Below, one piece after another: positions 4,844 to 52,327 of a stretch of 64,000 bases of DNA (the first letter of the stretch is position 1; each line of letters opens with the position of its first letter). Below the pieces are notes generated by a model that ran no database searches, was not told the DNA's origin, and saw only the letters and a list, made by a program, of their open reading frames with translations. A program made the translations under genes and the position numbers. The DNA comes from a virus, in IMG/VR virus record IMGVR_UViG_3300035698_024280; one strand, written 5' to 3'.

Positions 4844-5125
4844 TCAATTTAATTGACGTACTTTTCTTTCAGCTCGCTTCGCTCGTTTAGCTTTTGCTGC
4901 TGCGATATTCGCAATATCAGATGGCGTCTTCTCACGGTCTTTATTATGCCGTTTATCATAAGCTGATGCCTTAAACAATCGACTATTAAAGATATCTCCA
5001 GAATTATCGTGTGAAACATATGACAATGCGGATGCCGCGAGCATTAATTTACTCATTGAGGCTGGCGCCTTCTCGGAAATTTTGATTATAGGTTTCGAAT
5101 CGTTTGTATAAATGTGATCGTTCAT
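4844..5125 (-). CDS. Hypothetical basic protein (93 aa)
   Basis: ORF track; C-terminal AAAKAKRAKRAERK; GGAAC motif at 5150-5165 upstream. Confidence 0.6.
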   Translation of the reverse strand: MNDHIYTNDSKPIIKISEKAPASMSKLMLAASALSYVSHDNSGDIFNSRLFKASAYDKRHNKDREKTPSDIANIAAAKAKRAKRAERKVRQLN

Positions 5126-8218: not shown

Positions 8219-8911
8219 CTAGTTTGCTACCTTTAATTTTTTCCGTACAATTGTATTAATTCCCGGATATTGCTGTCGAATTTGTGGGATGATAACACGG
8301 CGTAGCCAGTTTCTACGAATAGTAATATCCTCATTAGATGGGTCTTCTACGATATGATCGTTTAAGCATTTATCTCTAACATAATTATTAATATCTGACC
8401 TTTCAGTATCTGCTACAAAAGGTCTAATTACTGTATAATTACCTCGATTAGTTCTTGTAGGGATAGGCATGAAGTCTGCATGGCCATTAAGACAATTCAT
8501 TAGATAGGACTCTACACAATCATCTAGGTGGTGACATACTACAATCTCTTCATCTCTCGTGTCTTCGAGAGCTGTACTAAATAGCTTATATCTAACATTT
8601 CTAAAATCTGATTCAGATTTAAGCTTGACCTTATTAGAATATCTCATTACTGCATACTCAATAAGAGTCACCTCTTCTCCAGCCTCCCGCCGCCATCGAC
8701 GTTCTGTATTTAAATAGTGTACATATTCAATGAAGGCCGTCTCTGCCTCTTGACTGTATGGGGTACCGTGATTTACATGAATGAGTTTTAACTTTCTATA
8801 CCCAGAGCATAAAAAATGAGATAGAGCGACGCTATCTTTACCCATTGACACTGCAACATTAAGCGTTGCCCATTTGGGTGTTTCAATATTGTTTTTATTA
8901 AACCTAATCAT
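8219..8911 (-). CDS. tilS: tRNA(Ile)-lysidine synthetase-like PP-loop ATPase (catalytic domain only)
   Basis: VAVSMGKDS PP-loop; IHVNHG; RNVRYKLF; CHHLDDCVESYLMN; IRPF; EDPSNED...RRNWLR. Confidence 0.85.
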   Translation of the reverse strand: MIRFNKNNIETPKWATLNVAVSMGKDSVALSHFLCSGYRKLKLIHVNHGTPYSQEAETAFIEYVHYLNTERRWRREAGEEVTLIEYAVMRYSNKVKLKSESDFRNVRYKLFSTALEDTRDEEIVVCHHLDDCVESYLMNCLNGHADFMPIPTRTNRGNYTVIRPFVADTERSDINNYVRDKCLNDHIVEDPSNEDITIRRNWLRRVIIPQIRQQYPGINTIVRKKLKVAN

Positions 8912-14058: not shown

Positions 14059-14183
14059 GGGTGGTGCTGGGAGTCGAACCCAGTAAGATACCTATCTCTT
14101 AATGTGAGACTCGAACTCACACACTCAACCAGAGTCACAACCAGGATTTGAACCCAGCTTCGGCTTCCGTGTCGCCCACCACC
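14059..14183 (-). ncRNA. Candidate tRNA-like ncRNA with acceptor stem and three D-loop/T-loop-like modules
   Basis: GGTGGTG...CACCACC closing stem; T-arm hairpins CTGGG-TTCAAAT-CCTGG, GTGAG-TTCGAGT-CTCAC and CTGGG-TTCGACT-CCCAG; intergenic; GGAAC-N5-TATAAT motif upstream at 14220-14235. Confidence 0.65.
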
Positions 14184-14267: not shown

Positions 14268-15020
14268 ATGTCATACTCAAACGTAGGAAAAGTCTGGACT
14301 CCGGAAACTTTTGATCAGTATCTTAATACTATAAAGGTTCCGAGTTGGTGTAAAAGTGTAACCATGCATCACACATGGGCACCTAATCTCGAGACTAGGC
14401 CGCGTGGGTTTACAATTCAGCACATAGTAAATATAAAAAATTACTATCAAAAAAAATTAGGATGGTCGAGGGGACCTCATCTGTTTATTGATGAGGATCA
14501 AATTTTCGGAATGTCGCCTCTCCAATCCAGCGGCATCCACGCCCGCTCCTTTAACTCTACGTCGATCGGTATAGAAGTTCTAGGTAATTATGATACTGAA
14601 GATCCGGAATCGGGTAGAGGTCTGGAGTCTTGGGAAACTGCGGCTGCAACAGCAAGGTCTTTAATTAAATGGATGGGTAATAATTCCACAATAGATAGCA
14701 GCGATGTTAAGTTCCATCGAGAAGACCCTAAAAGTTATAAAACATGCCCTGGTAAAAAAGTTAATAAGGATTGGTTTTTATCTCTCGTTAATAATGAGGC
14801 TACGGACAGCTCATCTCCAGGTACGGAACCGGAATTTGTACCTGTTGTAGAATGGTTGGTTGCAAATCGGGGCATCTCGGCGGATACAGCTGCAAAACAT
14901 CTTAGCAATAAAGGCGGTATGGTATATTTTAGTACCTTTTGGTTAGAAAATTCCTACTATAATCGGTCGGAGAAGGCTACGTATGCCCCAGTATCAGAAC
15001 TGAAACAGATACCAGAATAA
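14268..15020 (+). CDS. N-acetylmuramoyl-L-alanine amidase (Amidase_2), probable endolysin
   Basis: TMHHTW; PHLFID; GIHARSFNSTSIGIEVLGNYD; HRE...KTCPG. Start at 14268, 5 nt after TAAATA. Confidence 0.85.
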   Translation: MSYSNVGKVWTPETFDQYLNTIKVPSWCKSVTMHHTWAPNLETRPRGFTIQHIVNIKNYYQKKLGWSRGPHLFIDEDQIFGMSPLQSSGIHARSFNSTSIGIEVLGNYDTEDPESGRGLESWETAAATARSLIKWMGNNSTIDSSDVKFHREDPKSYKTCPGKKVNKDWFLSLVNNEATDSSSPGTEPEFVPVVEWLVANRGISADTAAKHLSNKGGMVYFSTFWLENSYYNRSEKATYAPVSELKQIPE

Positions 15021-16972: not shown

Positions 16973-17626
16973 TTAATTTAACTCCTCTAATAGTTGTAAA
17001 ATTAATTCTTTCGGCTTCTCGAGCCCGAGCTCATCAAGCTTTTCTTTGAAGAAATCGTCCCATTCAGATTTTTTCAGACTGATATTAATGTACTTAGACT
17101 CTTGCTGAATTTTAGGTTGTGATACTCTATGAAAGTTTAAAGCGTCAGCTTTTGGCTCCAGTGCGGCTATTGCACTGTGTGCTTCTTCGCTCAGGGATGT
17201 TAGAGCCCATCCCTTACCTGGGAATCGATCTACAATTAACCCAAACATTTCCGCAGCTTTTTTAAAATTTTTATTATGATACTGAACGTCATTACAATCC
17301 GGCAATTCTAAAATATTATTGTATAGATGCGCAAGCTCATGAAGCAGCGTTTCATATATATCCTGAGCTGGACGGTTCATATACTCAGCGCATATATTTA
17401 TTTCATGATAATATTCCTTATCCTCATCAGCTGCAGAAGAGTCTGACACCCATTTTTCCGCCCAAAAATGACCTAGATTATTTCGTCGAGCGCTCGTCTG
17501 AATAGTAATAAATACATTAGCGTTTTTTACTCTATCATCATCACAAAACCTATCGAGAAAGAATTTCTTTGCCCTATTAAGCTCGTCAATGGCTACTTGA
17601 TATTTTTTATTAATCTGGTCTTCCAT
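16973..17626 (-). CDS. SprT-like zinc metalloprotease
   Basis: EINICAEY...IYETLLHELAH...YHNKNFKKAAEMFGL (HExxH plus a third His). Confidence 0.75.
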   Translation of the reverse strand: MEDQINKKYQVAIDELNRAKKFFLDRFCDDDRVKNANVFITIQTSARRNNLGHFWAEKWVSDSSAADEDKEYYHEINICAEYMNRPAQDIYETLLHELAHLYNNILELPDCNDVQYHNKNFKKAAEMFGLIVDRFPGKGWALTSLSEEAHSAIAALEPKADALNFHRVSQPKIQQESKYINISLKKSEWDDFFKEKLDELGLEKPKELILQLLEELN

Positions 17627-17653: not shown

Positions 17654-17929
17654 TTATACTTCAATAGGGGCTGACTTCACCTCAACAGCACACTCATTTG
17701 TTATCATTTCATGATACTCAGGATGTAATATAGCTTCAAGCTCCGATGTGGCGACTTTAATAGCCCCCAGCTTAATGGCTACACGAAGTATCTTGTCTAA
17801 ATCTCCCGCGGCTCTCGCGTTTTTAATAGATAACTCAGCGGTAGCAATTCGTTTATTCCATACTGTGAGTAAGTTTTCTAGCTGCATTGTAGCAGCAGCT
17901 CGATGCAGATCTTTATCTAATACTATCAT
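17654..17929 (-). CDS. Hypothetical protein (91 aa)
   Basis: ORF track. Confidence 0.5.
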   Translation of the reverse strand: MIVLDKDLHRAAATMQLENLLTVWNKRIATAELSIKNARAAGDLDKILRVAIKLGAIKVATSELEAILHPEYHEMITNECAVEVKSAPIEV

Positions 17930-18237
17930 ACTAATTTATAACCAAGACTATCCGCAGTCATATTCCACAATTTAGATCGTTGCTCTGGAGTGTTTGCGTG
18001 GTCCTCGCTAAAATGATTATACATCTGATCCATCATCTCGCATCGGAATTCTTTATATGCATCGACGTATGGAGTCTCACTATCTAAAAATATATCTAAC
18101 ATCCACCCAGTCATGCATCGCCTCTCCCCCTCTCTAAATTTGCCCTTTACTAATTTTTCTGGCTGCATCTTTGGAAGTTCGCTGGGACGCACGAAGTGAT
18201 TGGAAAGTGGAACGTCTGTCTTATGTGTACTCTTCAT
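17926..18237 (-). CDS. Hypothetical protein (103 aa)
   Basis: ORF track; GGAAC motif at 18246-18261 upstream. Confidence 0.55.
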   Translation of the reverse strand: MKSTHKTDVPLSNHFVRPSELPKMQPEKLVKGKFREGERRCMTGWMLDIFLDSETPYVDAYKEFRCEMMDQMYNHFSEDHANTPEQRSKLWNMTADSLGYKLV

Positions 18238-18267: not shown

Positions 18268-18942
18268 TTAATTAAGAAAACTTCTAAATGTTAGACTAAT
18301 ACGCCAATCGCAGGGCCTATCATGTTTCGGAATTCTATGGAAGTAATCGTCCTGAAACCCTACAGGCATTACAAATAAAGAGCCTTCTTCTAATAAAATT
18401 TTCTGATCGTCTGGTATATTTCCTTTGGTTGGTATCATACCAGTGTCGTTACAAATTGTACATTTAAAATTATGGGGGGTGTTATCAAGAACCGATGCCT
18501 TTTCTACTCCAGTTCCGCAACATCCTGAACATTCAGATTTTTGGGGCTTAACCCATATTTCTCTCTCCGCTCCAAATGAAATTACAGCAATTGGCTCGTC
18601 TGGATCCATGCCATCAAAGTCATCTGCATGATACCCTAGATGCTGTTTATCTGTATCATATTTGTTTAAGAAGCAACCGTTAAAATTAGAGCCTATATCG
18701 TAATTAAGAAGGGACATTATAGAGCCTATAAAAGGCTCCATATTTTGGGAAGTATATTGCTCAGCTCCACCAAATGCATTACCGTAAGAATATTCAGTCT
18801 TAGAATTGGACATAAAGTATTCATGCCGAGCAGCTCTTTTTGTTATCCAGTCAAGATTTAATAGCTCTGCTGTTATCGCTGGTATAGTTACAGATGGTAT
18901 ATATTCTTTATAATAAGTAATACCTTTATACAGCTCTTTCAT
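18268..18942 (-). CDS. alkB: AlkB-like 2OG-Fe(II) oxygenase with internal Cys4 zinc-finger insertion
   Basis: FNGCFLNKY...LGYHADD (HxD); IAVISFGAER; LEEGSLFVM; HRIPK (distal His); RISLTFR. Confidence 0.8.
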   Translation of the reverse strand: MKELYKGITYYKEYIPSVTIPAITAELLNLDWITKRAARHEYFMSNSKTEYSYGNAFGGAEQYTSQNMEPFIGSIMSLLNYDIGSNFNGCFLNKYDTDKQHLGYHADDFDGMDPDEPIAVISFGAEREIWVKPQKSECSGCCGTGVEKASVLDNTPHNFKCTICNDTGMIPTKGNIPDDQKILLEEGSLFVMPVGFQDDYFHRIPKHDRPCDWRISLTFRSFLN

Positions 18943-18974: not shown

Positions 18975-20198
18975 CTATATTAATTCAGAGATAATGTTCC
19001 CCTTACTTATTTTTATCGGTCGGAGATCTGGAGTCATTAACTCCTTTGTTGAATCTATACCAGCAAGATGAAACATTGTCGCAAATAAATCCTCTGGAGA
19101 TACTGGACTCTCCTCCACTTCGTTAGATATGGAGTCTGTAGTACCGTAAACCATCCCATTATTAATACCACCGCCGCCGATAATAGTAGAAAAGTTTCTA
19201 GGCCAGTGATCGCGACCTGCCGTCTTATTAATCTTCGGAGTACGGCCAAATTCACTAGTTACAATTACCATCGTCTCATCTAAAATACCTCGCGCTGCAA
19301 GATCGGTGAAGAGTGCAGAGAGAGCTTTATCTAGATCAGGTGCCTTCGCATCGAAACTGTTTTTTATCTTGTCATGATTGTCCCAACCGCCATAATTTAC
19401 CTTAACAATTCGTACCCCCGCCTCTACAAGTCGTCGAGAAATCAAAAGCCTTTGCCCTGGCTGAGTTTTCCCATACATATCCTTCATCGTTTCTGATTCC
19501 TTCGATATATCAAATGCCTGCATTGCTGCCTCAGAAGACATTAAATCAAATGCTTGATCATAAAATTTATCCATCGCAATTACATTATCGGATTTTATTT
19601 CTCTCTTAAATTTAGAATCCACGAGCTCTAGTAAATCCCTTTTTCTGTTTGATACTCCATTCTTTAAATCTCTAACCTTGAAGTCTTTTGCAGCTGGGTC
19701 AGCCCCAAGGCTAAAAGAGCCAAACTTAGCTGAGAGAAAACCCGTGCTCGCAAATTCGTTTTGCTCTACTGGGACTGAAACATAAGCAGGCAGAGAATTT
19801 CTAAATCCGAGTTCGTGAGAGACTATAGATCCTACAGATGGATATTTAATGGCGGGGCTGGGCTTATAGCCTGTAAACATGTACTCAGTACCCCTCTCGT
19901 GCGCGGCCTGACCATGAGTCATGCTGTTAATCACAGAAAATTTGTCAGTCTCTTTCGCAAGTAGGGGGAAGCGATCTGAAAACAATAAACCGTCTGTCTT
20001 AGTCTTAATAGCTTCATACGGGCCTCTAAATTCAGCGTCCGCAAACGGTTTAGGGTTCCAGGTCTCTTGAGATGATATACCCCCGTCCAAATATATATAA
20101 ATTATATTCTTAGCTTTTACGGCTTTACCATATTGCGCATTTAAAATTGTAGGGAATGTTAATCCGCCCATTATAGATAAAAAACTTCGCTTATTCAT
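18975..20198 (-). CDS. DUF1501-domain protein with Tat-like signal peptide
   Basis: MNKRSFL; KAKNIIYIYLDGGISSQETWNPKP; LLISRRLVEAGVR; GGWDNH; TMVIVTSEFGRTPKIN; AGRDHWP; GGG...GMVYGTTD; VSPEDLFATMFHLAGID. Confidence 0.9.
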   Translation of the reverse strand: MNKRSFLSIMGGLTFPTILNAQYGKAVKAKNIIYIYLDGGISSQETWNPKPFADAEFRGPYEAIKTKTDGLLFSDRFPLLAKETDKFSVINSMTHGQAAHERGTEYMFTGYKPSPAIKYPSVGSIVSHELGFRNSLPAYVSVPVEQNEFASTGFLSAKFGSFSLGADPAAKDFKVRDLKNGVSNRKRDLLELVDSKFKREIKSDNVIAMDKFYDQAFDLMSSEAAMQAFDISKESETMKDMYGKTQPGQRLLISRRLVEAGVRIVKVNYGGWDNHDKIKNSFDAKAPDLDKALSALFTDLAARGILDETMVIVTSEFGRTPKINKTAGRDHWPRNFSTIIGGGGINNGMVYGTTDSISNEVEESPVSPEDLFATMFHLAGIDSTKELMTPDLRPIKISKGNIISELI

Positions 20199-20207
20199 AT
20201 ATTATAT

Positions 20208-20663
20208 TTATTCATATTTTTGCTTAAGTCTATCAAGCTCTGCCAAATCATCTCGACGGACATTATCTTTATGAAGACGTCGGCGGTTATCAGCTTCAAC
20301 TATTTCACATATATTGAAAATCTCTACAATATCTTCATCGCCCTCCGGCTCACCGGTTGCAATATTAAATCCTAACTTACCGATTTTACTAACACATAAG
20401 GTGCATGATACAATAAACCCACTGTCAAAGTAATTTCTACCCCCATACCCATCAGCGCAAGAGTATAAGTCAGCCTCTACAATTATTGAGTCTCTAGGGT
20501 GAGGGCACATTGCTCTCAACTCTTTATGATTTTGAGTCACCTGAGCTAAATGTTCTTCGCTTTGATTTAGTTGAAATTTATATAAACCGCCTCCCACACA
20601 AAAAGTTTTAACTATTGCAGCTGAAAGGTCCGCAAAACTTGATTTCATTTTTCTATTACTCAT
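20208..20663 (-). CDS. Hypothetical protein (151 aa)
   Basis: ORF track; CPH and CTLC motifs. Confidence 0.55.
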   Translation of the reverse strand: MSNRKMKSSFADLSAAIVKTFCVGGGLYKFQLNQSEEHLAQVTQNHKELRAMCPHPRDSIIVEADLYSCADGYGGRNYFDSGFIVSCTLCVSKIGKLGFNIATGEPEGDEDIVEIFNICEIVEADNRRRLHKDNVRRDDLAELDRLKQKYE

Positions 20664-24137: not shown

Positions 24138-24698
24138 TTAGTTTTTGGAAAACTTGAAGTTTTCTGAGTAATCGAACGACTTCACTAACAGTTGCTTTTC
24201 AAGAGTGTCGATATAATCAGCAGCTTCAATCATTTGAACATATGGAGTACCATCGCAATAGTCCTCTGTCGCTAAATCCCGTAAAACGGACGAGATTGAC
24301 TGCTTATCTGCATAAGGGTGAAGCGGATTTGTAATTAATAGTGTATTCATCTAATTATTAACTATTGTCATCTCTTCAATCGCCGCTGTCATAATAGCAA
24401 TGAGATCATATTTATCATGAAACGCTCCAACTAAGCACATGGAGAGTGTTTCAATACTCATTTGAGCAAATTGAGTAATATCAGCAGGCTTGGATTGTCG
24501 CCTGAGACCAAAAGATCCCCGCTCAGCCCTTTTAATAATACGATTAACGAGAGCTTGATTAATTGTAGGTAGTTTACTAGCTAATGTAGTATCTTTAACC
24601 TTAATATGTTCAGCAGTACTTTCAATATTCTTAATTGCCGTAGCAACTCCTTTAAGCTGCTCAGCAGCTTCTGATACTTTATTTCTCTTTCTTTTCAT
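24138..24698 (-). other. Two small hypothetical ORFs (24138-24350, 24351-24698)
   Basis: ORF track; contiguous. Confidence 0.5.
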
Positions 24699-25563: not shown

Positions 25564-25964
25564 GATCTTTTAAGGATAAATGCGTTGTGTGGCGCACTAT
25601 AAGTTATAATAATTCCAGTGTTGGATAGTTGCTTAGGCGATGTTGGAGATAGATTAGATATATTATACATATCTGCTATACGGCTTACATCAGCGGGTGA
25701 TAAAATCTCTTGTGTCGATTGATTTAATCTCATTTTTTCAACCTTAGGGTGCAGCGAGCCGTCGTGCTGTCGGCTGTCAGGTATAGCATCTATAGAAGTA
25801 ATTCTACCACCATCACCTCTAAAGTCACCATCTGTCTTAAACGGGCTAGATTTAGATTGCCACTGCTTACGTTGAGAATTTGACAGTTTTGAGCCCCAAT
25901 ATTCTAAAAATGTTTTCACATCATTATTTATGCAAAATCTATGTTTTATCTCCGATAATAACAT
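25560..25964 (-). CDS. Hypothetical virion-region protein (134 aa)
   Basis: ORF track; contains KTFLEY; overlaps neighbours. Confidence 0.55.
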   Translation of the reverse strand: MLLSEIKHRFCINNDVKTFLEYWGSKLSNSQRKQWQSKSSPFKTDGDFRGDGGRITSIDAIPDSRQHDGSLHPKVEKMRLNQSTQEILSPADVSRIADMYNISNLSPTSPKQLSNTGIIITYSAPHNAFILKRS

Positions 25965-26544
25965 TCGGAAACGCTTGTGGTGGTGGCTCGCAGCCAGTAG
26001 TTATAACCTTATAGATGTTTGTCTTATCATGGTAGTGCGGAAATGGCACATCTGGTACATCAACTTCTAAAAATCTACACAGGTGATCCCAACCCATCTC
26101 GGGTCTAGTAACTAATACTCTATCAGAAAGCTCCCCGCTTATTATCCTCTCAAAAATCTCAGTATAAAATAGCCTTGCGCCGGTTGCAATGCCACTATAA
26201 TCAAATTTTGGGGCATTTTGTAGTATAGGGGATACTTTTTTACCCGCGTGTAAGAGACTTTGATTGTGATTAAATGTGGAAAACGCTAAATCAAAAGGGT
26301 CTCGGTAGGATACTATAAATTTAGAGTCGGTAAATTCATTCAATAGCTCTCGCCAGTGAATCCACCCTAGATCAAAAAATGCATTATATTCCGAATTTCT
26401 AAAATACTCCCAATCTCTTAATTCGGTTCTAACCGGGAGCTCTATATAATTATGAATTGAATTCCACCCAAGAGTTTTTAGAGCCCATGAGTAAGATTTA
26501 CTTCCAGATTTCGGTGGAGATATAAAAAAGACCTTTTCTTTCAT
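25939..26544 (-). CDS. Sulfotransferase-family protein (Sulfotransfer_4-like P-loop)
   Basis: KVFFISPPKSGSKS..WALKTLG; KFIVSYRDP; MGWDHLCRFLEVDVPDVPFPH. Confidence 0.75.
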   Translation of the reverse strand: MKEKVFFISPPKSGSKSYSWALKTLGWNSIHNYIELPVRTELRDWEYFRNSEYNAFFDLGWIHWRELLNEFTDSKFIVSYRDPFDLAFSTFNHNQSLLHAGKKVSPILQNAPKFDYSGIATGARLFYTEIFERIISGELSDRVLVTRPEMGWDHLCRFLEVDVPDVPFPHYHDKTNIYKVITTGCEPPPQAFPNVIIGDKT

Positions 26545-27510: not shown

Positions 27511-27888
27511 ATGGAATTTACATTCAACTCATTAAATCTTATACTCCCTGAGCCAGACTCTCTCATCGCGCAGGCATCTACCCATGTACTATTTATTAGC
27601 GCTGGTGATATCGATGGGAGGAATATTAAGGGAGTATCGTTTAATGCTGTTGAGGATTCGGAGCTGTCAGGAGATATGATTACGTTGAGTGCCACTCAAG
27701 GTATTAAATTTAGTGTAGATGCAGTATACAACACAACCGAAATGGGTATAATATTAGATGATAATAGCGTTACTTTATTTACTGCAACTACCGGATTCCA
27801 GGAGACAAAATCTCAAAACCTCTCAAGCAATTCCACTAATCATAGCTTTCCAGAGCTTCGTCGATTAGTTAGACAGGGCATGCTATAA
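27511..27888 (+). CDS. Hypothetical late protein (125 aa)
   Basis: TATAAATA at 27498-27505, 5 nt before the ATG. Confidence 0.55.
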   Translation: MEFTFNSLNLILPEPDSLIAQASTHVLFISAGDIDGRNIKGVSFNAVEDSELSGDMITLSATQGIKFSVDAVYNTTEMGIILDDNSVTLFTATTGFQETKSQNLSSNSTNHSFPELRRLVRQGML

Positions 27889-29565
27889 GGCAGTCCACCC
27901 TAAAGATTCAAGATCTTCCATATCTATATCCTCCATGGTATCATTAAAAATCATGGGCATTCCGATTTGCTCATGATTTTTTGCAGCATCCTCATATTGG
28001 GATAAAGGATTTGTAAATTTGTGCAGGCCATAATCATGAGGATCTAACTTCAATGGTCGGCCATTATCATCTCGGTCTAATACTTCAAAGTATTTTGTAA
28101 CAATCTCTTCATGTAGTATCATTAATGCCCAGGCAAGCGCCATTATGCGGTCATCATGAAATCCCCTCTCTGCAGCCCAAGCCTTATTAGGTTTTCTAAC
28201 AAAATGTTTGAACTCCTTTAGAGTCTCCAGACTATGTAACACTACAGATTCTAAATCATTAAACCAATACCTCATATTAGTTACGGCAGCATATTTTGTA
28301 TTAGTATGAGATACCATTCCTATCTGCTTATTGCTTCTAGCTGCTTTACCCGATCCGTATGAAACTATGTTACTGTAGTTCTCAGTATGGTATAATCGCT
28401 CTAGTACTGCTGTGCCTTGATTATTTCTTTCTATAAGAGTTAGTGGATTTCCCCAGTTTCCTAAAATCTCTAACAACTCTGTACTGAAATTATAAGGTGA
28501 TATTCCATTGTTAGCATATTCTGCCACCTGCTCTATTTCTTGTAAATTAGTTATATCTAATACTTGTATAATAGAAAAATCCTGACCAACTCCTTCAGCT
28601 ACATCTACACCTGCTACATAAACCCTAGACTCGTCAGGTGTTGCATATATTTTATATGCTCCGTTATATAGCTCAAATTCAGGCTTTCTTGCATTAAGTT
28701 TTAATCTTTCATACTGTTCAAAGTCTACTGCAGATTGCCCTGCTGAGTGGAATTGGAGTTCAAATTCCTGCTGCCATAAATCTTCACTCTCTAGTGAATC
28801 TCGAGTTTCTTTAGCCCACTTCGCGTCTCTCCCTGGTATCTCACTCCAATGAATCTTAGCTGGAGTCCAGCCATTTTCTCCCCTTTCAGCGCCAATCCAT
28901 AGAGTATAAAATAGATTATCAGTTCCAGCAGGAGTTGAGGCAATTAGTATCTGAGATTTTTTAGAGGCAGAAATAATTGGGTATACTGCCGCCCAAAATT
29001 CTTTCATCATGTTTCTCTCAATGTGAGCGAGCTCATCTAGTATTAGAAGGTCGCAAGAACTACCTCGACCGGCTGAAGATGTAGTAGTAGTAATTCCGAT
29101 TCTAGAGCCGTTTTCAAACTCTGCAGAAGTTTTGCCATATTCTGTAACTGGTGGCTTTAACCAGTTTGGAAGCTCCTCATAAGCCATACGTACTCGTCTA
29201 AAAATTTCAATAGCAGTAGCCTCTTTATTAGCTACGATAAGTATTCGTTGATCTGCTTTAAAACACGCTACCCACAATGCATAAATAGTCATCATCGTCG
29301 ATTTGCCTACCTGTCGAGAAGCTAAAACTATATTAAATCTATTATCTCTAAACCCTCGTAGTACTTTTTTCTGACATTTATGAAGCTTAATTTTGCAACG
29401 GCCAGATCCTGGAGCGATGATAAAGAAAAACTCTTCAGCGAAGTATATAATATTATTTTTCGCTTTGTTTAATCTCTTAATTTGGTCCGGTGAGTACTCA
29501 AACTGTGCTCCCCGCTTGGGGAGGTTTGGGTTATTCATGTAAAATTGGTCACTCTTCTTAGACAT
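27883..29565 (-). CDS. Terminase large subunit (T4 gp17-like)
   Basis: NPNLPK; FNIVLASRQVGKST (Walker A); LILDELAH (Walker B); ASTP; EQEF-like QQEFE; YVAGVDVAEGVGQDFS; HDDRIMAL. Confidence 0.95.
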   Translation of the reverse strand: MSKKSDQFYMNNPNLPKRGAQFEYSPDQIKRLNKAKNNIIYFAEEFFFIIAPGSGRCKIKLHKCQKKVLRGFRDNRFNIVLASRQVGKSTMMTIYALWVACFKADQRILIVANKEATAIEIFRRVRMAYEELPNWLKPPVTEYGKTSAEFENGSRIGITTTTSSAGRGSSCDLLILDELAHIERNMMKEFWAAVYPIISASKKSQILIASTPAGTDNLFYTLWIGAERGENGWTPAKIHWSEIPGRDAKWAKETRDSLESEDLWQQEFELQFHSAGQSAVDFEQYERLKLNARKPEFELYNGAYKIYATPDESRVYVAGVDVAEGVGQDFSIIQVLDITNLQEIEQVAEYANNGISPYNFSTELLEILGNWGNPLTLIERNNQGTAVLERLYHTENYSNIVSYGSGKAARSNKQIGMVSHTNTKYAAVTNMRYWFNDLESVVLHSLETLKEFKHFVRKPNKAWAAERGFHDDRIMALAWALMILHEEIVTKYFEVLDRDDNGRPLKLDPHDYGLHKFTNPLSQYEDAAKNHEQIGMPMIFNDTMEDIDMEDLESLGWTAL

Positions 29566-30273: not shown

Positions 30274-32649
30274 ATGAGAACTATTCAATCCCCTGGGGTG
30301 GAAATACGAGAATTTGACCTCACGTCGCGACTAGCTACATTTGCTGGGACTGATGTCTTTGCAACTGGTTTTGCCTCTAAGGGTCCTACAGATGAAATAA
30401 TAAAGCCGACGAGTATGCGAGAGTACGAGGCAATATATGGAATTCCACAAACACCTGCTGAGCGATATTTATATTACAGTGTAGAGCCATTAATAAAGGC
30501 TGGCGCGAATGTCAATATATCACGAATGCCTTACGGGCCAGATCTAGGGGAAGGATTTGGAGATCAATATGGGGCATTAGTTTACCCAGTAGTCACTGTA
30601 TCGCCTAATAGTGGTAACGGTAAGTATAACGACTTTAGTACTGCTTTATCTCCAGCATCTGCAACGTATATACTCGGCGAACCTATACACTTTGCATTAA
30701 CTAAATCTGAATATCTGTCAGCTATTGATGGTAGTGGATTTACTTGGGCGAATACAGCGTCTGCAGCTGGTAACATCTCCAGCGTTAGTAATTTTGGTGG
30801 AGCTGGTGTAGTTGTACTCAATAAAGGCCTCACTACTATTAATGATAGATTTGAGGGATACTATATCGGTATTACAGATAACACGAATGTAAATCCTGCA
30901 GAAGAAAATGATACAATTCGTCAAGTTAAAACCCTACAGACAGATTCAACGTCTAGTGGTAATGGTTCAAACTTTACCAATCTTCCAGAAAGCCGAATTA
31001 ATTTTACATTAAGTGGCACACAAGTATCTCAAGGTACTGTTTCACAAGTACTAGAGAGTACAGCTGGGTTTGATGTACAGGGATCATCATATGATGATAT
31101 ACTAAATATAGGTGTATTTAAATTAAGACAATCTCTGTTTAATCCAGATACTATTAAATTAGATTATTACCTCGAAGATAATGCTGTCGGCTCTCTCGAC
31201 TCGCATAGGCAAATCGGAGATACTCAAGGCGGTGATCCTATTACATTCTTTATTGAGCCTAAACTCAATAATTCTTCAAGAAACGTTACGGTGTTAGTTA
31301 ATGATAATATAACTAATCGAGGTGGCTCTACATGGTTAAGTCCAGATGGCATACCTAGAAAGGCAGTAAGATTGTTTACTAATAATCTTATTGAGGATAC
31401 ATACCAAGCTCATTTAGGGACTAGTACATTATCCGCAAGAGGTGAAAAGTATAGGTGTGAATATAGTGCTCTAACTGCCGCTGCGTTTAAGACTGCACTC
31501 GGTATAAGTGATATAGGGTCTGATAGTTCGGCTGACAATCTATACCCTATCGGCGCATATTCGAGTAACACATATTCTGATAAAAGCCTCGGCAGTATAC
31601 CGCTTAAGCTTGATCGTATTCTCGATCTAGTTAGAAATGATGAAATATATAATATAGATATATCAATCGAGGCTGGTCTAGGCACTATATATGCAGTAGC
31701 AAGTGCAAATCGGACTAGCTATTATGACGATATACAAACATCAGAAGGTTTGACTGAGGGTTTGGGAGCTCTTGCAAATACAAACGGATATGTTACACCA
31801 GCTCTAGAGTCTGACCTTAGAGGTAATTATAATACTATATTCAGTAGATTTCAAAACTTTGCAGAGTTTGAAAGGAAAGATCATCTCTTTATTGCTGATC
31901 CAATTCGCCATATTTTAATTCAAGGTACTAATGCAAAAACGATATCTAATCCGAATAAAAATTGGTCTCAACATATATTTAGCTCATTGAGGCATCAATT
32001 CAATAATAGTAATAGCTCTTATACGTGTACATATGCTAACTGGGCAAGGGTTAACGATAAGTTTTCCGGTACTGATTTCTGGTCACCGTTCTCTGGTATT
32101 GCTGCGTCGCTTATGACAAAAACTGATACTACTACATACCCTTGGATAGCTCCTGCAGGCTTTACACGCGGTAGAGTATCGGGTGTTAACGATATTGCAA
32201 TTACGCCTAACCTCAAACAACGGGACGATTTGTATAAATTCGCAATGAACCCTATTACATTGTTCAGGGAGGGTATAACAGTATTCGGTCAAAAGACTCT
32301 ACAGAAGATGCCGAGTGCGTTTGATAGAATTAATGTTCGTCGATTATTCTTATATTTGGAGAAAGTTACTAAGGTAACTTCTAGATATTATGTGTTCGAG
32401 CCTAACACGGTATTTACACGTACTAGAATAGTAGATGATCTCAGGCCGTTATTCGAGAAAGCTAAGAACAATGATGGAGTTTATGATTACATCATCGTTT
32501 GCGACGAAAGAAATAACACCCCTGATATCATTGATCAAAATGAACTTGTAATTGATATATATCTCAAACCGACGAGAGCGGGAGAGTTTGTATTAATCAA
32601 CTTCTACGCTAGTAGAACTAATCAAGACTTCAAAGAGCTAGTTAACTAA
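30274..32649 (+). CDS. Tail sheath protein (T4 gp18-like)
   Basis: SPGVEIREFDLT; GFASKGP; PWIAPAGFTRG; MNPITLFREGITVFGQKTL; SAFDRINVRRLFL; FEPNTVFTR; IYLKPTRAGEFVLINF. Confidence 0.95.
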   Translation: MRTIQSPGVEIREFDLTSRLATFAGTDVFATGFASKGPTDEIIKPTSMREYEAIYGIPQTPAERYLYYSVEPLIKAGANVNISRMPYGPDLGEGFGDQYGALVYPVVTVSPNSGNGKYNDFSTALSPASATYILGEPIHFALTKSEYLSAIDGSGFTWANTASAAGNISSVSNFGGAGVVVLNKGLTTINDRFEGYYIGITDNTNVNPAEENDTIRQVKTLQTDSTSSGNGSNFTNLPESRINFTLSGTQVSQGTVSQVLESTAGFDVQGSSYDDILNIGVFKLRQSLFNPDTIKLDYYLEDNAVGSLDSHRQIGDTQGGDPITFFIEPKLNNSSRNVTVLVNDNITNRGGSTWLSPDGIPRKAVRLFTNNLIEDTYQAHLGTSTLSARGEKYRCEYSALTAAAFKTALGISDIGSDSSADNLYPIGAYSSNTYSDKSLGSIPLKLDRILDLVRNDEIYNIDISIEAGLGTIYAVASANRTSYYDDIQTSEGLTEGLGALANTNGYVTPALESDLRGNYNTIFSRFQNFAEFERKDHLFIADPIRHILIQGTNAKTISNPNKNWSQHIFSSLRHQFNNSNSSYTCTYANWARVNDKFSGTDFWSPFSGIAASLMTKTDTTTYPWIAPAGFTRGRVSGVNDIAITPNLKQRDDLYKFAMNPITLFREGITVFGQKTLQKMPSAFDRINVRRLFLYLEKVTKVTSRYYVFEPNTVFTRTRIVDDLRPLFEKAKNNDGVYDYIIVCDERNNTPDIIDQNELVIDIYLKPTRAGEFVLINFYASRTNQDFKELVN

Positions 32650-35081: not shown

Positions 35082-35378
35082 TATCTTAGGATTTAAATAT
35101 ATCAGGAGCTTCAGAAGTATCTGACATCTCTCTTACAGCCTGCTTATATAACTCAATCTGTCTTCGATCTGCGATTTCGTCTGCATCATTATTTTTTTTT
35201 AGTTTCTACTGCCTCTATAAAACATCTTAGGTGAGAAGGTCTTTCGGAATAATTAGCCCAAACAGGATTTCCGCAATAAGTGCACGGGGGGCGTGGGAAT
35301 GCAGAATTAAACCGTATTCTAAAATTCTTTAGTAATTTCATTTATAAAATAATTATACAGTGGTTCCGTATATGTTAG

Positions 35379-50476: not shown

Positions 50477-52327
50477 ATGAGTACTGAATTTGTTGAATTT
50501 AATTTACCTAAAGGAGCCTATGCATCTTTTGACGCTGTAACGCTGAAGGACTACATAACAGATAGGCTAACTGAAAATACTGTATTTACCGATCAGAATT
50601 TTGAGGGAAGTAACCTTGCTGCATTGACTGATATTTTTGCCTTTACATATCATATACTACTGTTCTATTTGAACCAAACATCATCTGAAACAATGTTTGA
50701 TCAAACTCAGCTATATGAGAATATGAATAAGTTGGTAAAACTTATAGATTATAAGCCTGAAGGGCCTAAGACTTCAGTTGTAAGCTTTCAAGCGAAGGGG
50801 ACGGCAGAACTACCGGTCGGGGCATATGGTATAAAGAGATACTCTTATATTAATTATAACGGATTTACATATTCATTTTCTAAAGATGTATCATTTGAAA
50901 AAACAATTACTGGTAATGAACCCCTTACTACTTTTTCAGACAAGACGTTGCTATTTCAGGGCGTATTTACTGAATATCCGGAATATACAGCGATGGGTGA
51001 GAGTTATGAAGTATTAACATTAATACTTCAAGATGTAGACAATAAAAATACCCAATTTATAGATTATAATAATATTAACATTTATGTTAAAAATATAGGG
51101 GATAATACCTGGTCGCAATGGGAAGAGATAGATAGTCTATATTATGCTGGCGGTACATCGGATGTATTTGAAAAGAGAGTAAACGAAAATGGTCGTGTAG
51201 AGTTAAAGTTTGGTAATAATATTACCGGTAAAAAGCTTAATGAGGGAGATATAATATATGTATTCTATCTATTGAGTGATGGTAGTGAAGCTTATATTGA
51301 TATATCAGGGCTGCTTAAGGCATCTTCTATCAAACAATACAACTCCCAAAGATTTCAAGAATTAAATTCAGCATTGTATAGCGATTCCACTAATATCAAT
51401 TTTGTTGGATCTAATACAATAGCTGGCAGGATTGCATCTGAAGAGATAGAATTAAATAATACCGCAAAATCTACCCCATACTCAGACTATGAATTATTAG
51501 AAGATATTAAACAAAACGCGCCTAGAGTATTTTCTGCGCAAAATAGAGCGGTGACTATAGATGATTATGAATCATTATTAAAAAAGCAATTTAGTAACCT
51601 GTTTCAGTCTATAAAAGTTGTCAATAATAATAGCTATATAGATAATGTAATAAAATATTACTACGACATTGGGCTATCACGACCTAACGAAGATACTAAT
51701 GTATCAATTAACCAGTTAAAGTTCGCAGATGCATGCGACTTTAATAATATATATGTTTTTGCATTACCATCAGCAGGATCCATTATAAATGAAATTGCGC
51801 CGGTAGCAACGCCACAATCATTAAAAAAGGCCATTAATGATTATATAGATCGTGTAAAGATGGTTACGAATGAGATTGTAATTTGCGATCCAGTTTATAC
51901 TGCGGTAGACTTAGGGGTAGAAATACAATCAAACGACCCAAGGTCAATTTCGGAAATTAGAGACAATACGACTTTAGTAGTTAATGCAGATAGGGGCATA
52001 AATATATCCCTAGATGATATAAAGACCTCCATCAATAAAATTATATTAGACTATTTTGATAATAGTAATATAACTCTCGGAATGGTAATAGATTTAGCTG
52101 ATTTATCTAGACGAATAATAGATATATCAGGGGTAGATGAAATATACACATCTACAACTTATGAAGGCAATACTATTAAAAAACCCGGCATTAGTCTACT
52201 AACGTGGAATACACTATATCCGGAAGATGATATAAATATTACAACCCAAAATATACAATTACCGTTCTTTAAAGTGCCGTTTTTCTACAAAGGTTCGGAA
52301 CTTGCTGCGAAGATAATAATTAATTAA
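50477..52327 (+). CDS. Baseplate wedge subunit (T4 gp6-like)
   Basis: FDAVTLKDYI; FTDQNFEGSNL; NQTSSETMFD; KLIDYKP; LKFGNNITGK; APRVFSAQNRAVTIDDYE. Confidence 0.88.
   Translation: MSTEFVEFNLPKGAYASFDAVTLKDYITDRLTENTVFTDQNFEGSNLAALTDIFAFTYHILLFYLNQTSSETMFDQTQLYENMNKLVKLIDYKPEGPKTSVVSFQAKGTAELPVGAYGIKRYSYINYNGFTYSFSKDVSFEKTITGNEPLTTFSDKTLLFQGVFTEYPEYTAMGESYEVLTLILQDVDNKNTQFIDYNNINIYVKNIGDNTWSQWEEIDSLYYAGGTSDVFEKRVNENGRVELKFGNNITGKKLNEGDIIYVFYLLSDGSEAYIDISGLLKASSIKQYNSQRFQELNSALYSDSTNINFVGSNTIAGRIASEEIELNNTAKSTPYSDYELLEDIKQNAPRVFSAQNRAVTIDDYESLLKKQFSNLFQSIKVVNNNSYIDNVIKYYYDIGLSRPNEDTNVSINQLKFADACDFNNIYVFALPSAGSIINEIAPVATPQSLKKAINDYIDRVKMVTNEIVICDPVYTAVDLGVEIQSNDPRSISEIRDNTTLVVNADRGINISLDDIKTSINKIILDYFDNSNITLGMVIDLADLSRRIIDISGVDEIYTSTTYEGNTIKKPGISLLTWNTLYPEDDINITTQNIQLPFFKVPFFYKGSELAAKIIIN

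Follow-up and report, generated by a model that had tools for sequence, protein, structure and literature searches.

A DUF1501 gene of probable Verrucomicrobiota-side ancestry in an uncultured T4-like phage: a putative late, exported enzyme

The DUF1501 locus

The 64,000-nt stretch of IMG/VR virus record IMGVR_UViG_3300035698_024280 analysed here (the window) is part of a phage genome of about 195 kb (longest contig on record, 195,516 bp) and carries a gene for a protein of the DUF1501 family. DUF1501 and the PSCyt/PSD1 proteins are among the most expanded families of unknown function in Planctomycetota and Verrucomicrobiota, and a module of DUF1501 with PSCyt1/PSCyt2/PSD1 (DUF1549/DUF1553) is conserved across Planctomycetota, Verrucomicrobiota and Lentisphaerae (Kamneva et al. 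2012, PMC3542564). The original prediction, made from the DNA letters and their reading frames, had proposed that the gene is an intact, ameliorated auxiliary gene of a T4-like phage, acts late in the periplasm or virion, and points to a host among the Planctomycetota-Verrucomicrobiota-Chlamydiota (PVC) bacteria. The locus comprises the following features.

18975..20198, minus strand: DUF1501 gene, ATG to TAA, 407 aa; residues 1-21 resemble a twin-arginine translocation (Tat) signal, and the mature domain has a predicted alkaline-phosphatase-superfamily fold
20199..20213, minus strand: putative late-type upstream element AATAAATA, then 6 nt, then ATG; overlaps the TAA stop of the upstream gene
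20208..20663, minus strand: upstream neighbour, 151 aa, ending 9 nt before the DUF1501 start; recurs in independent assemblies
18268..18942, minus strand: downstream neighbour, 2-oxoglutarate-Fe(II) oxygenase (AlkB-like), with its own early-type GGAAC..TATAAT box

The oxygenase gene and the DUF1501 gene probably share no transcript, and the 151-aa neighbour matches no Pfam or NCBIfam family.

The 407-aa protein matches the Pfam profile PF07394 (DUF1501) over positions 1-390 of 390 with 350.8 bits (cut-off 27; E = 1.4e-104) and is thus a full-length family member, as the original prediction had it, encoded by an intact gene on the minus strand; no NCBIfam or PHROG family matched it. The family-invariant motifs WDNH (272-275), EFGRTP (316-321) and GRDHW (328-332) are present, and all family-invariant residues are kept (G39-G40, S92, H100, W272-D273-x-H275, E316-F-G-R-T and G328-R-D-H331). 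In an alignment of 84 PVC cellular homologues with 100 viral-contig copies (96 from IMG/VR, four from other assemblies), 91 columns reach 93% conservation or more within the cellular set; the protein retains 83 of them, and the eight deviations are conservative changes (R3K, G8S, D48N, R91N, Y154F, R186K, Y217F and A341G). The earlier claim that all hallmark motifs are present needs amending on one point: D38 of LDGG (20085-20087) is no hallmark, since other DUF1501 members have P, G, S, T or N there, and N48 (20055-20057) occupies a conserved acidic position at which 94% of the cellular homologues have Asp. Nucleotide pyrophosphatase/phosphodiesterase (NPP)-type enzymes have a metal-binding Asp at the place corresponding to D38; a relocated metal ligand is pure speculation.

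Composition, selection and integrity of the gene

The gene has a GC content of 0.41 versus 0.36 for the window, and its GC at third codon positions (GC3) is 0.36 versus 0.25-0.33 for other phage genes. Its relative synonymous codon usage (RSCU) correlates with that of the pooled phage genes at 0.80, within the range of bona fide phage genes (0.65-0.89). Compositionally it is a phage gene, and the AT-rich, phage-like codon style noted earlier is borne out by these values.

Compared with its closest relatives at the DNA level, the window gene has a proportion of synonymous differences (pS) of 0.82-0.86, which is saturated, and a proportion of nonsynonymous differences (pN) of 0.20-0.24. The ratios of nonsynonymous to synonymous rates (dN/dS) of closer phage pairs are 0.012, 0.071 and 0.073. 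The gene is therefore under strong purifying selection; its conserved residues are not degenerate and its dN/dS is not neutral. The window gene's own assemblies are nearly clonal, with one synonymous difference, which makes a population dN/dS uninformative.

The identical protein occurs on at least 24 contigs (ENA, JGI and Logan) from several samples, and 15 collection blocks of this set have a longest contig of 50-200 kb. Gene neighbours are the same in three contexts from three samples, with zero to one nucleotide difference. Because of this repeated independent assembly in the same context, a chimeric assembly is very unlikely.

Upstream signals

The sequence before the start codon, GAA-TAA-ATA-TAA-TAT-ATG, reads TAAATA-N6-ATG as originally described, with the stop codon of the upstream gene inside the motif. 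There is neither a Shine-Dalgarno sequence nor a GGAAC..TATAAT early-type box upstream of this ATG, and sigma-70 promoter and terminator scans around the gene did no better than on shuffled sequence. The core of T4-type late promoters is TATAAATA, and the TAAATA signature of the window matches it as an (N)ATAAATA-type element.

The exact pattern TAAATA-N6-ATG occurs 10 times versus 3.2 expected. We also surveyed the 40 nt before each of 94 open reading frames (ORFs) of the window. From 26.6 kb onward, in the structural region that includes the sheath gene, 14 of 41 genes have TAAATA 11-13 nt before the ATG, compared with four of 53 in the early region (Fisher p = 0.0015; about 0.4 genes in total would be expected by chance). 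The four early-region genes are DUF1501, the endolysin and two small ORFs. Moreover, about half of 18 related-phage DUF1501 genes have TAAATA 9-14 nt upstream. This enrichment at structural genes, shared by the endolysin and by DUF1501 genes of related phages, supports the late-type promoter that had been proposed. The very short spacing between motif and ATG, together with the fact that almost no window gene has a Shine-Dalgarno sequence, suggests near-leaderless messages.

A different arrangement precedes many small minus-strand genes (0.2-26 kb and 35-37 kb), where GGAAC(C)...TATAAT stands immediately before the ATG and resembles a promoter cassette of early type, different from the putative late-type signal.

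Minus-strand starts with GGAAC(C)...TATAAT: genes 235-477, 4844-5125, 16973-17626, 17926-18237, 18268-18942, 24351-24698 and 35189-35341

Relatives of the gene in phages and in PVC bacteria

A tblastn search of the protein against 50,697 GenBank phage records gave no match. Metagenomes hold many homologues of 405-421 aa at 55-76% identity, UniProt/BFVD includes a DUF1501 protein (A0A6J5M742) from an uncultured Caudovirales phage, and a profile scan in answer to the suggested survey of IMG/VR found that at least 354 viral contigs encode a relative. Phage-borne DUF1501 is thus not rare. The literature searched contained no paper on phage copies of DUF1501, and its single phage mention is a weak CDD match of a 61-aa protein of Pseudomonas phage ZC03.

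Among cellular genomes (one per GTDB species), the best 80 loci are 41-56% identical to the window protein, and 79 of them belong to Verrucomicrobiota or Planctomycetota; the best cellular identities, 52-56%, are all in PVC bacteria. The sole non-PVC label belongs to L124 (CAZMOU010000007.1, a metagenome-assembled genome (MAG) named 'uncultured Chitinophaga sp.'), whose GC is 67-71%; it groups with Pirellulaceae sequences and the contig is probably misbinned. Hence the nearest cellular homologues do not lie outside PVC.

Trees were inferred with FastTree (214 sequences), with IQ-TREE under LG+C20 (87 sequences) and under LG+G4 (47 sequences). The window protein belongs to a clade of 21 sequences, all from phage contigs or unlabelled metagenome contigs, with a support of 95 in the Shimodaira-Hasegawa-like approximate likelihood ratio test. 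All three trees agree that its sister is a clade of seven phage and eight Verrucomicrobiota sequences (support for the sister relation, 94, 90 and 94); this sister clade is itself supported at 98, and its Verrucomicrobiota members are Prosthecobacter, Brevifollis, Verrucomicrobiaceae and Opitutae MAGs. Planctomycetota fall in another subtree. Phage and cellular sequences interleave, with at least 10 switches forced by well-supported branches, and a tree that unites all phage copies in one clade is rejected by the approximately unbiased (AU) test (delta lnL 138.5, p = 0.0012; 47 sequences, LG+G4). Because of this interleaving and the AU result, we conclude that phages captured DUF1501 from PVC bacteria repeatedly. 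The window copy itself, from its place in the trees, descends from an old capture on the Verrucomicrobiota side; in that part of the DUF1501 tree all cellular members are Verrucomicrobiota.

All members of the window clade whose context was inspected lie among phage genes. Inspected contexts are as follows.

P0020: GIY-YIG, HNH, denV-like and peptidoglycan-binding genes
L004: directly after a T4-type terminase
P0088: between T4 Gp23, a gp21-type protease, gp13 and portal genes
P0011: beside ribonucleotide reductase, dUTPase and RNA ligase genes
P0075: beside Lar, SNase and Laminin_G fibre-like genes

Three complete or near-complete IMG/VR genomes (225, 227 and 243 kb, one with terminal repeats) encode a large terminase (TerL) 43-52% identical to that of the window. 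Each of them has two DUF1501 genes, and one carries a PSD1 partner.

PSCyt2/PSD1 partner genes

A PSCyt2/PSD1 (DUF1549/DUF1553) gene lies within 5 kb of DUF1501 in 56-61 of the 80 cellular loci; usually it comes after DUF1501, and a gene for a PPC-domain protein of about 820 aa separates the two. Phage loci share this association: 16 of 80 IMG/VR loci also carry a PSCyt2/PSD1 gene (595-694 aa), among them L010, from the wider clade of the window, and 12 of the sister phage clade's 17 loci, in all of which the gene encodes 595-601 aa. The two phage partner proteins inspected, those of L010 and L013, each combine a Sec-type leader with a single CxxCH motif. The window has no PSCyt2 (PF07583) or PSD1 (PF07587) gene in its 64 kb, as judged by tblastn with phage and cellular partner queries (best E = 2.2). 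In the nearest cellular clade, of Prosthecobacter/Brevifollis-type MAGs, seven of nine loci are likewise without a PSCyt2/PSD1 gene within 5 kb.

L013 (IMG/VR 3300036770_007495) is a complete phage genome of 224.7 kb with terminal repeats and a TerL 52% identical to that of the window. In its segment 6001-11409, DUF1501 and two small genes come before PSCyt2/PSD1 (595 aa, Sec leader, one CxxCH), which a second DUF1501 follows; the phage thus carries a near-complete PVC module. A further 122-kb IMG/VR contig, G004, carries four divergent DUF1501 paralogues within about 7 kb (loci L075 and L076); this record, 73% complete, gave no TerL match.

Export signal and predicted fold

The N-terminus, MNKRSFLSIMGGLTFPTILNA followed by QYG, follows the Tat pattern with KR in place of RR (MNKRSFLS), a short h-region and a putative cleavage site between ILNA and Q, in agreement with the Tat-like, KR-bearing leader described originally. 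RR is present in 119 of 130 phage or metagenome homologues and in 71 of 84 cellular homologues, and seven phage or metagenome copies have KR or RK. R4, the F-L pair and the ..A-Q site are conserved across phage copies, which argues that export is retained. Since the leader is conserved and the protein has no lipobox and no cysteine, it is predicted to be soluble and periplasmic and not a virion component. Thus, of the two locations first proposed, the periplasm fits the export signal; a place in the virion is unlikely, since phage copies conserve an N-terminal signal for export out of the cytoplasm, where virions are assembled.

An AlphaFold2 (AF2) model has a mean predicted local distance difference test score (pLDDT) of 85.5 and a predicted template modelling score (pTM) of 0.86, with only residues 1-24 disordered. 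In the model the invariant residues lie at C-terminal strand ends, like the active sites of the alkaline-phosphatase superfamily. VIA-align comparison against 48,161 chains gave 68 chains at Z >= 8, and the 50 listed all belong to that superfamily. The best match is PafA (Z 19.6, 274 residues, root-mean-square deviation 4.1), followed by ENPP6/7/4 and Xac NPP (Z 19.4-18.9), sulfatases (Z 18.4-16) and LtaS/EptA/YejM (Z 15-16); Foldseek gave E = 8e-8 for LtaS and a probability of 1.00 for LtaS and sulfatases. Sequence searches of the PDB with the single protein and with a profile found nothing better than E = 0.03.

A formylglycine sulfatase is ruled out: the protein has no cysteine and no C/S-x-P-x-R motif, and its match to the sulfatase profile PF00884 reaches 19.9 bits versus a cut-off of 25 and covers the C-terminal third only. 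HMMER alignments place E316-F317 where sulfatases and LtaS have a metal-binding D-H pair. Bimetallo phosphoesterases of the NPP/PafA type use a Thr/Ser nucleophile and six Asp/His zinc ligands; candidate counterparts in the window protein (E44, S92/T94, D273, H275, D330 and H331) occur in the right order.

The phage carrying the gene

Phage genes stand on both sides of DUF1501 within one 195-kb contig, and its cellular relatives are in PVC bacteria, as expected of an auxiliary gene. These flanking genes, the phage-like codon usage and the PVC relatives uphold the view of an ameliorated, host-derived, intact auxiliary gene in a genuine T4-like phage.

27883-29565, minus strand: TerL
30274-32649: tail sheath
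50477-52327: baseplate wedge
14268-15020, plus strand: Amidase_2 endolysin, on the strand opposite to its neighbours; TAAATA lies 11 nt upstream of its ATG, and the gene served as an internal control for the late signal

The window TerL is only 31-34% identical to that of any isolate, the best matches being T4-like cyanophages, and the carrier, a myophage, therefore represents a deep, uncultured T4-like lineage.

Other genes of the window include a PP-loop ATPase (8219-8911, minus; PF01171, E = 5e-27), which is common to the DUF1501-carrying phage loci L043 and L069, and a Sulfotransfer_4-domain protein (25939-26544, minus; E = 4.7e-20). The latter was considered as a second host clue and had one distant homologue among 5.8 billion proteins, which is of no use for that purpose. 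A related phage contig, L168, has a Sulfotransfer_1 gene about 10 kb from its DUF1501. A tRNA-Ser(cga) is predicted at 14059-14142 on the minus strand (ARAGORN; anticodon at position 30), and two adjacent paralogous small genes (523-828 and 899-1207, minus; 101 and 102 aa) share near-identical 40-nt upstream regions with an AGGAG-like box. Only six of the 12-kb IMG/VR loci share a gene with the window, too sparse to use.

Discussion

Taken together, we favour, at a probability of roughly 60%, the reading that the DUF1501 gene is a functional auxiliary gene of an uncultured T4-like phage of about 195 kb, and that it encodes a late, exported, metal-dependent enzyme, with a Verrucomicrobiota bacterium as the most likely host. 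A T4-type late promoter, with TAAATA 12 nt ahead of the ATG, would drive transcription of the gene along with that of the structural genes and the endolysin. Its product would enter the host Tat pathway by the KR-type twin-arginine-like leader, folded and probably already metal loaded, and cleavage after ILNA(21) would release a soluble periplasmic enzyme. As a member of the alkaline-phosphatase superfamily, this enzyme may hydrolyse or transfer a phospho- or sulfo-ester of an envelope or extracellular substrate in a metal-dependent reaction. Its candidate active site, at the strand ends, would comprise E44, S92/T94, H95/H100, D273-x-H275, E316 and D330-H331. It would work alone or with PSCyt/PSD1 partner proteins of the host, the phage carrying none in the 64 kb seen, and that host would most likely be a Verrucomicrobiota (PVC) bacterium.

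Several points weigh against this reading. The window clade is old and lacks any cellular sequence, its identity to cellular proteins being about 50%; donor and present host may therefore not be the same. The phage GC of 36% lies far below the 48-68% of the Verrucomicrobiota loci found. The late promoter is read from a motif, and with 6 nt to the ATG it would give a nearly leaderless mRNA. The first Arg of the putative Tat motif is Lys. The Asp that N48 replaces could be a metal ligand, and the structural Z-scores of the model leave the phosphodiesterase, phosphatase, sulfatase and transferase branches effectively tied. The literature searched reports no substrate, metal or activity for any DUF1501 protein and no functional study of DUF1501, DUF1549 or DUF1553, so that the chemistry proposed here comes from the fold alone. 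Lastly, the approximately 131 kb of the genome outside the window could hold a partner gene.

We consider a PVC host probable, and a Verrucomicrobiota host specifically about an even call. This preference arises from the tree position, the repeated captures from PVC bacteria by phages, and the PVC-specific partner genes in related phages. The gene had been called the best host clue in the window; its nearest homologues are indeed in PVC bacteria and narrow the assignment to Verrucomicrobiota, whereas an old capture shows the origin of the gene better than the present host. Consistent with the statement that T4-like phages of PVC bacteria are poorly described, the literature searched contained no T4-like isolate of these bacteria. 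P8625, the first lytic Verrucomicrobia phage described, is long-tailed (PMC4642752).

The gene could instead be an old resident of the T4-like lineage that moved between phages and now serves in another Gram-negative host, in which case it would be a poor host marker. A window clade whose members are 48-56% identical to any cellular protein, saturated synonymous sites and the different genome positions of the gene in different phages all suit that history, as do the low GC combined with an almost complete lack of Shine-Dalgarno sequences and the missing partner gene. We nevertheless find a non-PVC host unlikely. Related phages, with TerL at 43-52% identity, repeatedly took DUF1501 from Verrucomicrobiota and Planctomycetota, some of them with PSCyt2/PSD1, which is hard to explain without PVC hosts, and all but one of the 80 nearest cellular loci are in PVC bacteria. 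T4-like cyanophages, too, are far lower in GC than their hosts.

How the enzyme would act within a PVC host admits a more specific version, in which it would dock, late in infection, as a subunit onto the haem-motif PSCyt/PSD1 (DUF1549/DUF1553) proteins of the host and so strengthen or divert one of the many DUF1501 modules that the host has. Conservation of the module across PVC bacteria (Kamneva et al., PMC3542564), the gene order of most cellular loci and the partner genes kept by L010 and most of the sister phage clade are in its favour, as is the lack of a partner gene in the 64 kb of the window. Against it, seven of the nine nearest cellular loci lack a partner within 5 kb, and a stand-alone activity is therefore plausible; docking of this kind seems doubtful to us. 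Still more speculative, and in our view improbable, is its extension to a general strategy in which large, T4-like aquatic phages of Verrucomicrobiota and Planctomycetota repeatedly take single DUF1501 enzymes and leave the haem-motif partner behind, so that the orphan plugs into the host PSCyt/PSD1 proteins late in infection and rewires a PVC-specific envelope or glycan system.

Cyanophages carry phoA and pstS, and by analogy the DUF1501 protein could act in the periplasm as a phosphatase or phosphodiesterase, releasing phosphate that goes into phage DNA. Its top structural matches are PafA and the ENPP/NPP phosphodiesterases (Z 19.6-18.9), the order D273-x-H275 ... D330-H331 appears to resemble that of NPP metal ligands, and the phosphatases PhoX and PhoD are typically exported by Tat. 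Sulfatases, however, follow within 1-3 Z units, leaving these branches effectively tied; a late-type promoter fits poorly with phosphate supply for replication; and no pho-box or other phosphate genes were seen nearby. The dozens of paralogues per PVC genome, paired with proteins bearing carbohydrate-binding domains (PMC3542564), also speak against a plain phosphatase, and we judge phosphorus scavenging to be improbable.

That the gene is an artefact or dead, whether a chimera of a bacterial fragment with a phage contig or a decaying remnant, is scarcely credible: it does form the highest-GC 1-kb bin of the window (0.41-0.42), but DUF1501 GC exceeds that of the flanks in nearly all phage loci, as expected of a Gly/Ala/Arg/Pro-rich protein, and the recurrence of gene and context in separate samples and on many contigs, phage-like GC3 and RSCU, an intact frame with its conserved residues and a dN/dS far under 1 all contradict it.

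Compared with the DUF1501 proteins of PVC modules (PMC3542564), the window protein is the same in being a full-length Pfam family member with the WDxH, EFGRTP and GRDHW motifs and a twin-arginine-type leader, and its nearest relatives are Verrucomicrobiota proteins at 48-56% identity. It differs in belonging to a lytic-type T4-like phage as a single copy with a late-type phage promoter motif, in lacking a PSCyt/PSD1 or PPC-domain neighbour within the 64 kb, in its shorter leader with KR for RR, and in its AT-rich codon usage. Other phage DUF1501 genes share the family, the upstream TAAATA and the type of carrier (large, low-GC, T4-like aquatic phages with TerL at 43-52% identity); many of those phages, in contrast, carry two to four paralogues or a PSCyt2/PSD1 partner, whereas the window phage has one orphan copy in a separate clade of phage and unlabelled contigs.

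With PafA, ENPP/NPP, type I sulfatases and LtaS/EptA/YejM the modelled protein shares the core alpha/beta fold (Z 15-19.6 over 230-274 residues) and acidic and His residues at strand ends in comparable order. It is only 10-17% identical to the enzymes of this superfamily, with no sequence-level match to a solved structure (E >= 0.03), and differs from sulfatases and LtaS in lacking Cys and C/S-x-P-x-R and in having E316-F317 at the D-H position. Like cyanophage phoA and pstS, it is a host-derived gene of putative periplasmic function under selection in T4-like aquatic phages; unlike them, it is apparently late and not early or phosphate regulated, has a PVC donor and belongs to a family without known function.

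The DUF1501 family, its PVC module, a phage copy in UniProt/BFVD and hundreds of IMG/VR copies are already known, and the window is one more instance of a recurrent phenomenon and no discovery in itself. What it adds is a single, partner-less copy from a distinct phage/unlabelled clade, a natural KR leader, the D48N replacement and a quantified association with a putative late promoter. Together with its relatives in related 200-kb phages, the gene is one of the few sequence clues that tie a deep, uncultured T4-like lineage to PVC hosts. Strong selection on the phage copy implies that the enzyme function pays off within a single infection cycle, and a small, single-copy, partner-less protein should be easier to express and assay than dozens of bacterial paralogues. 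If the orphan does plug into the PSCyt/PSD1 system of its host, a whole uncultured phage lineage would be marked as PVC infecting, and its one-gene phage form would offer a minimal and tractable starting point for work on one of the largest PVC gene families of unknown function.

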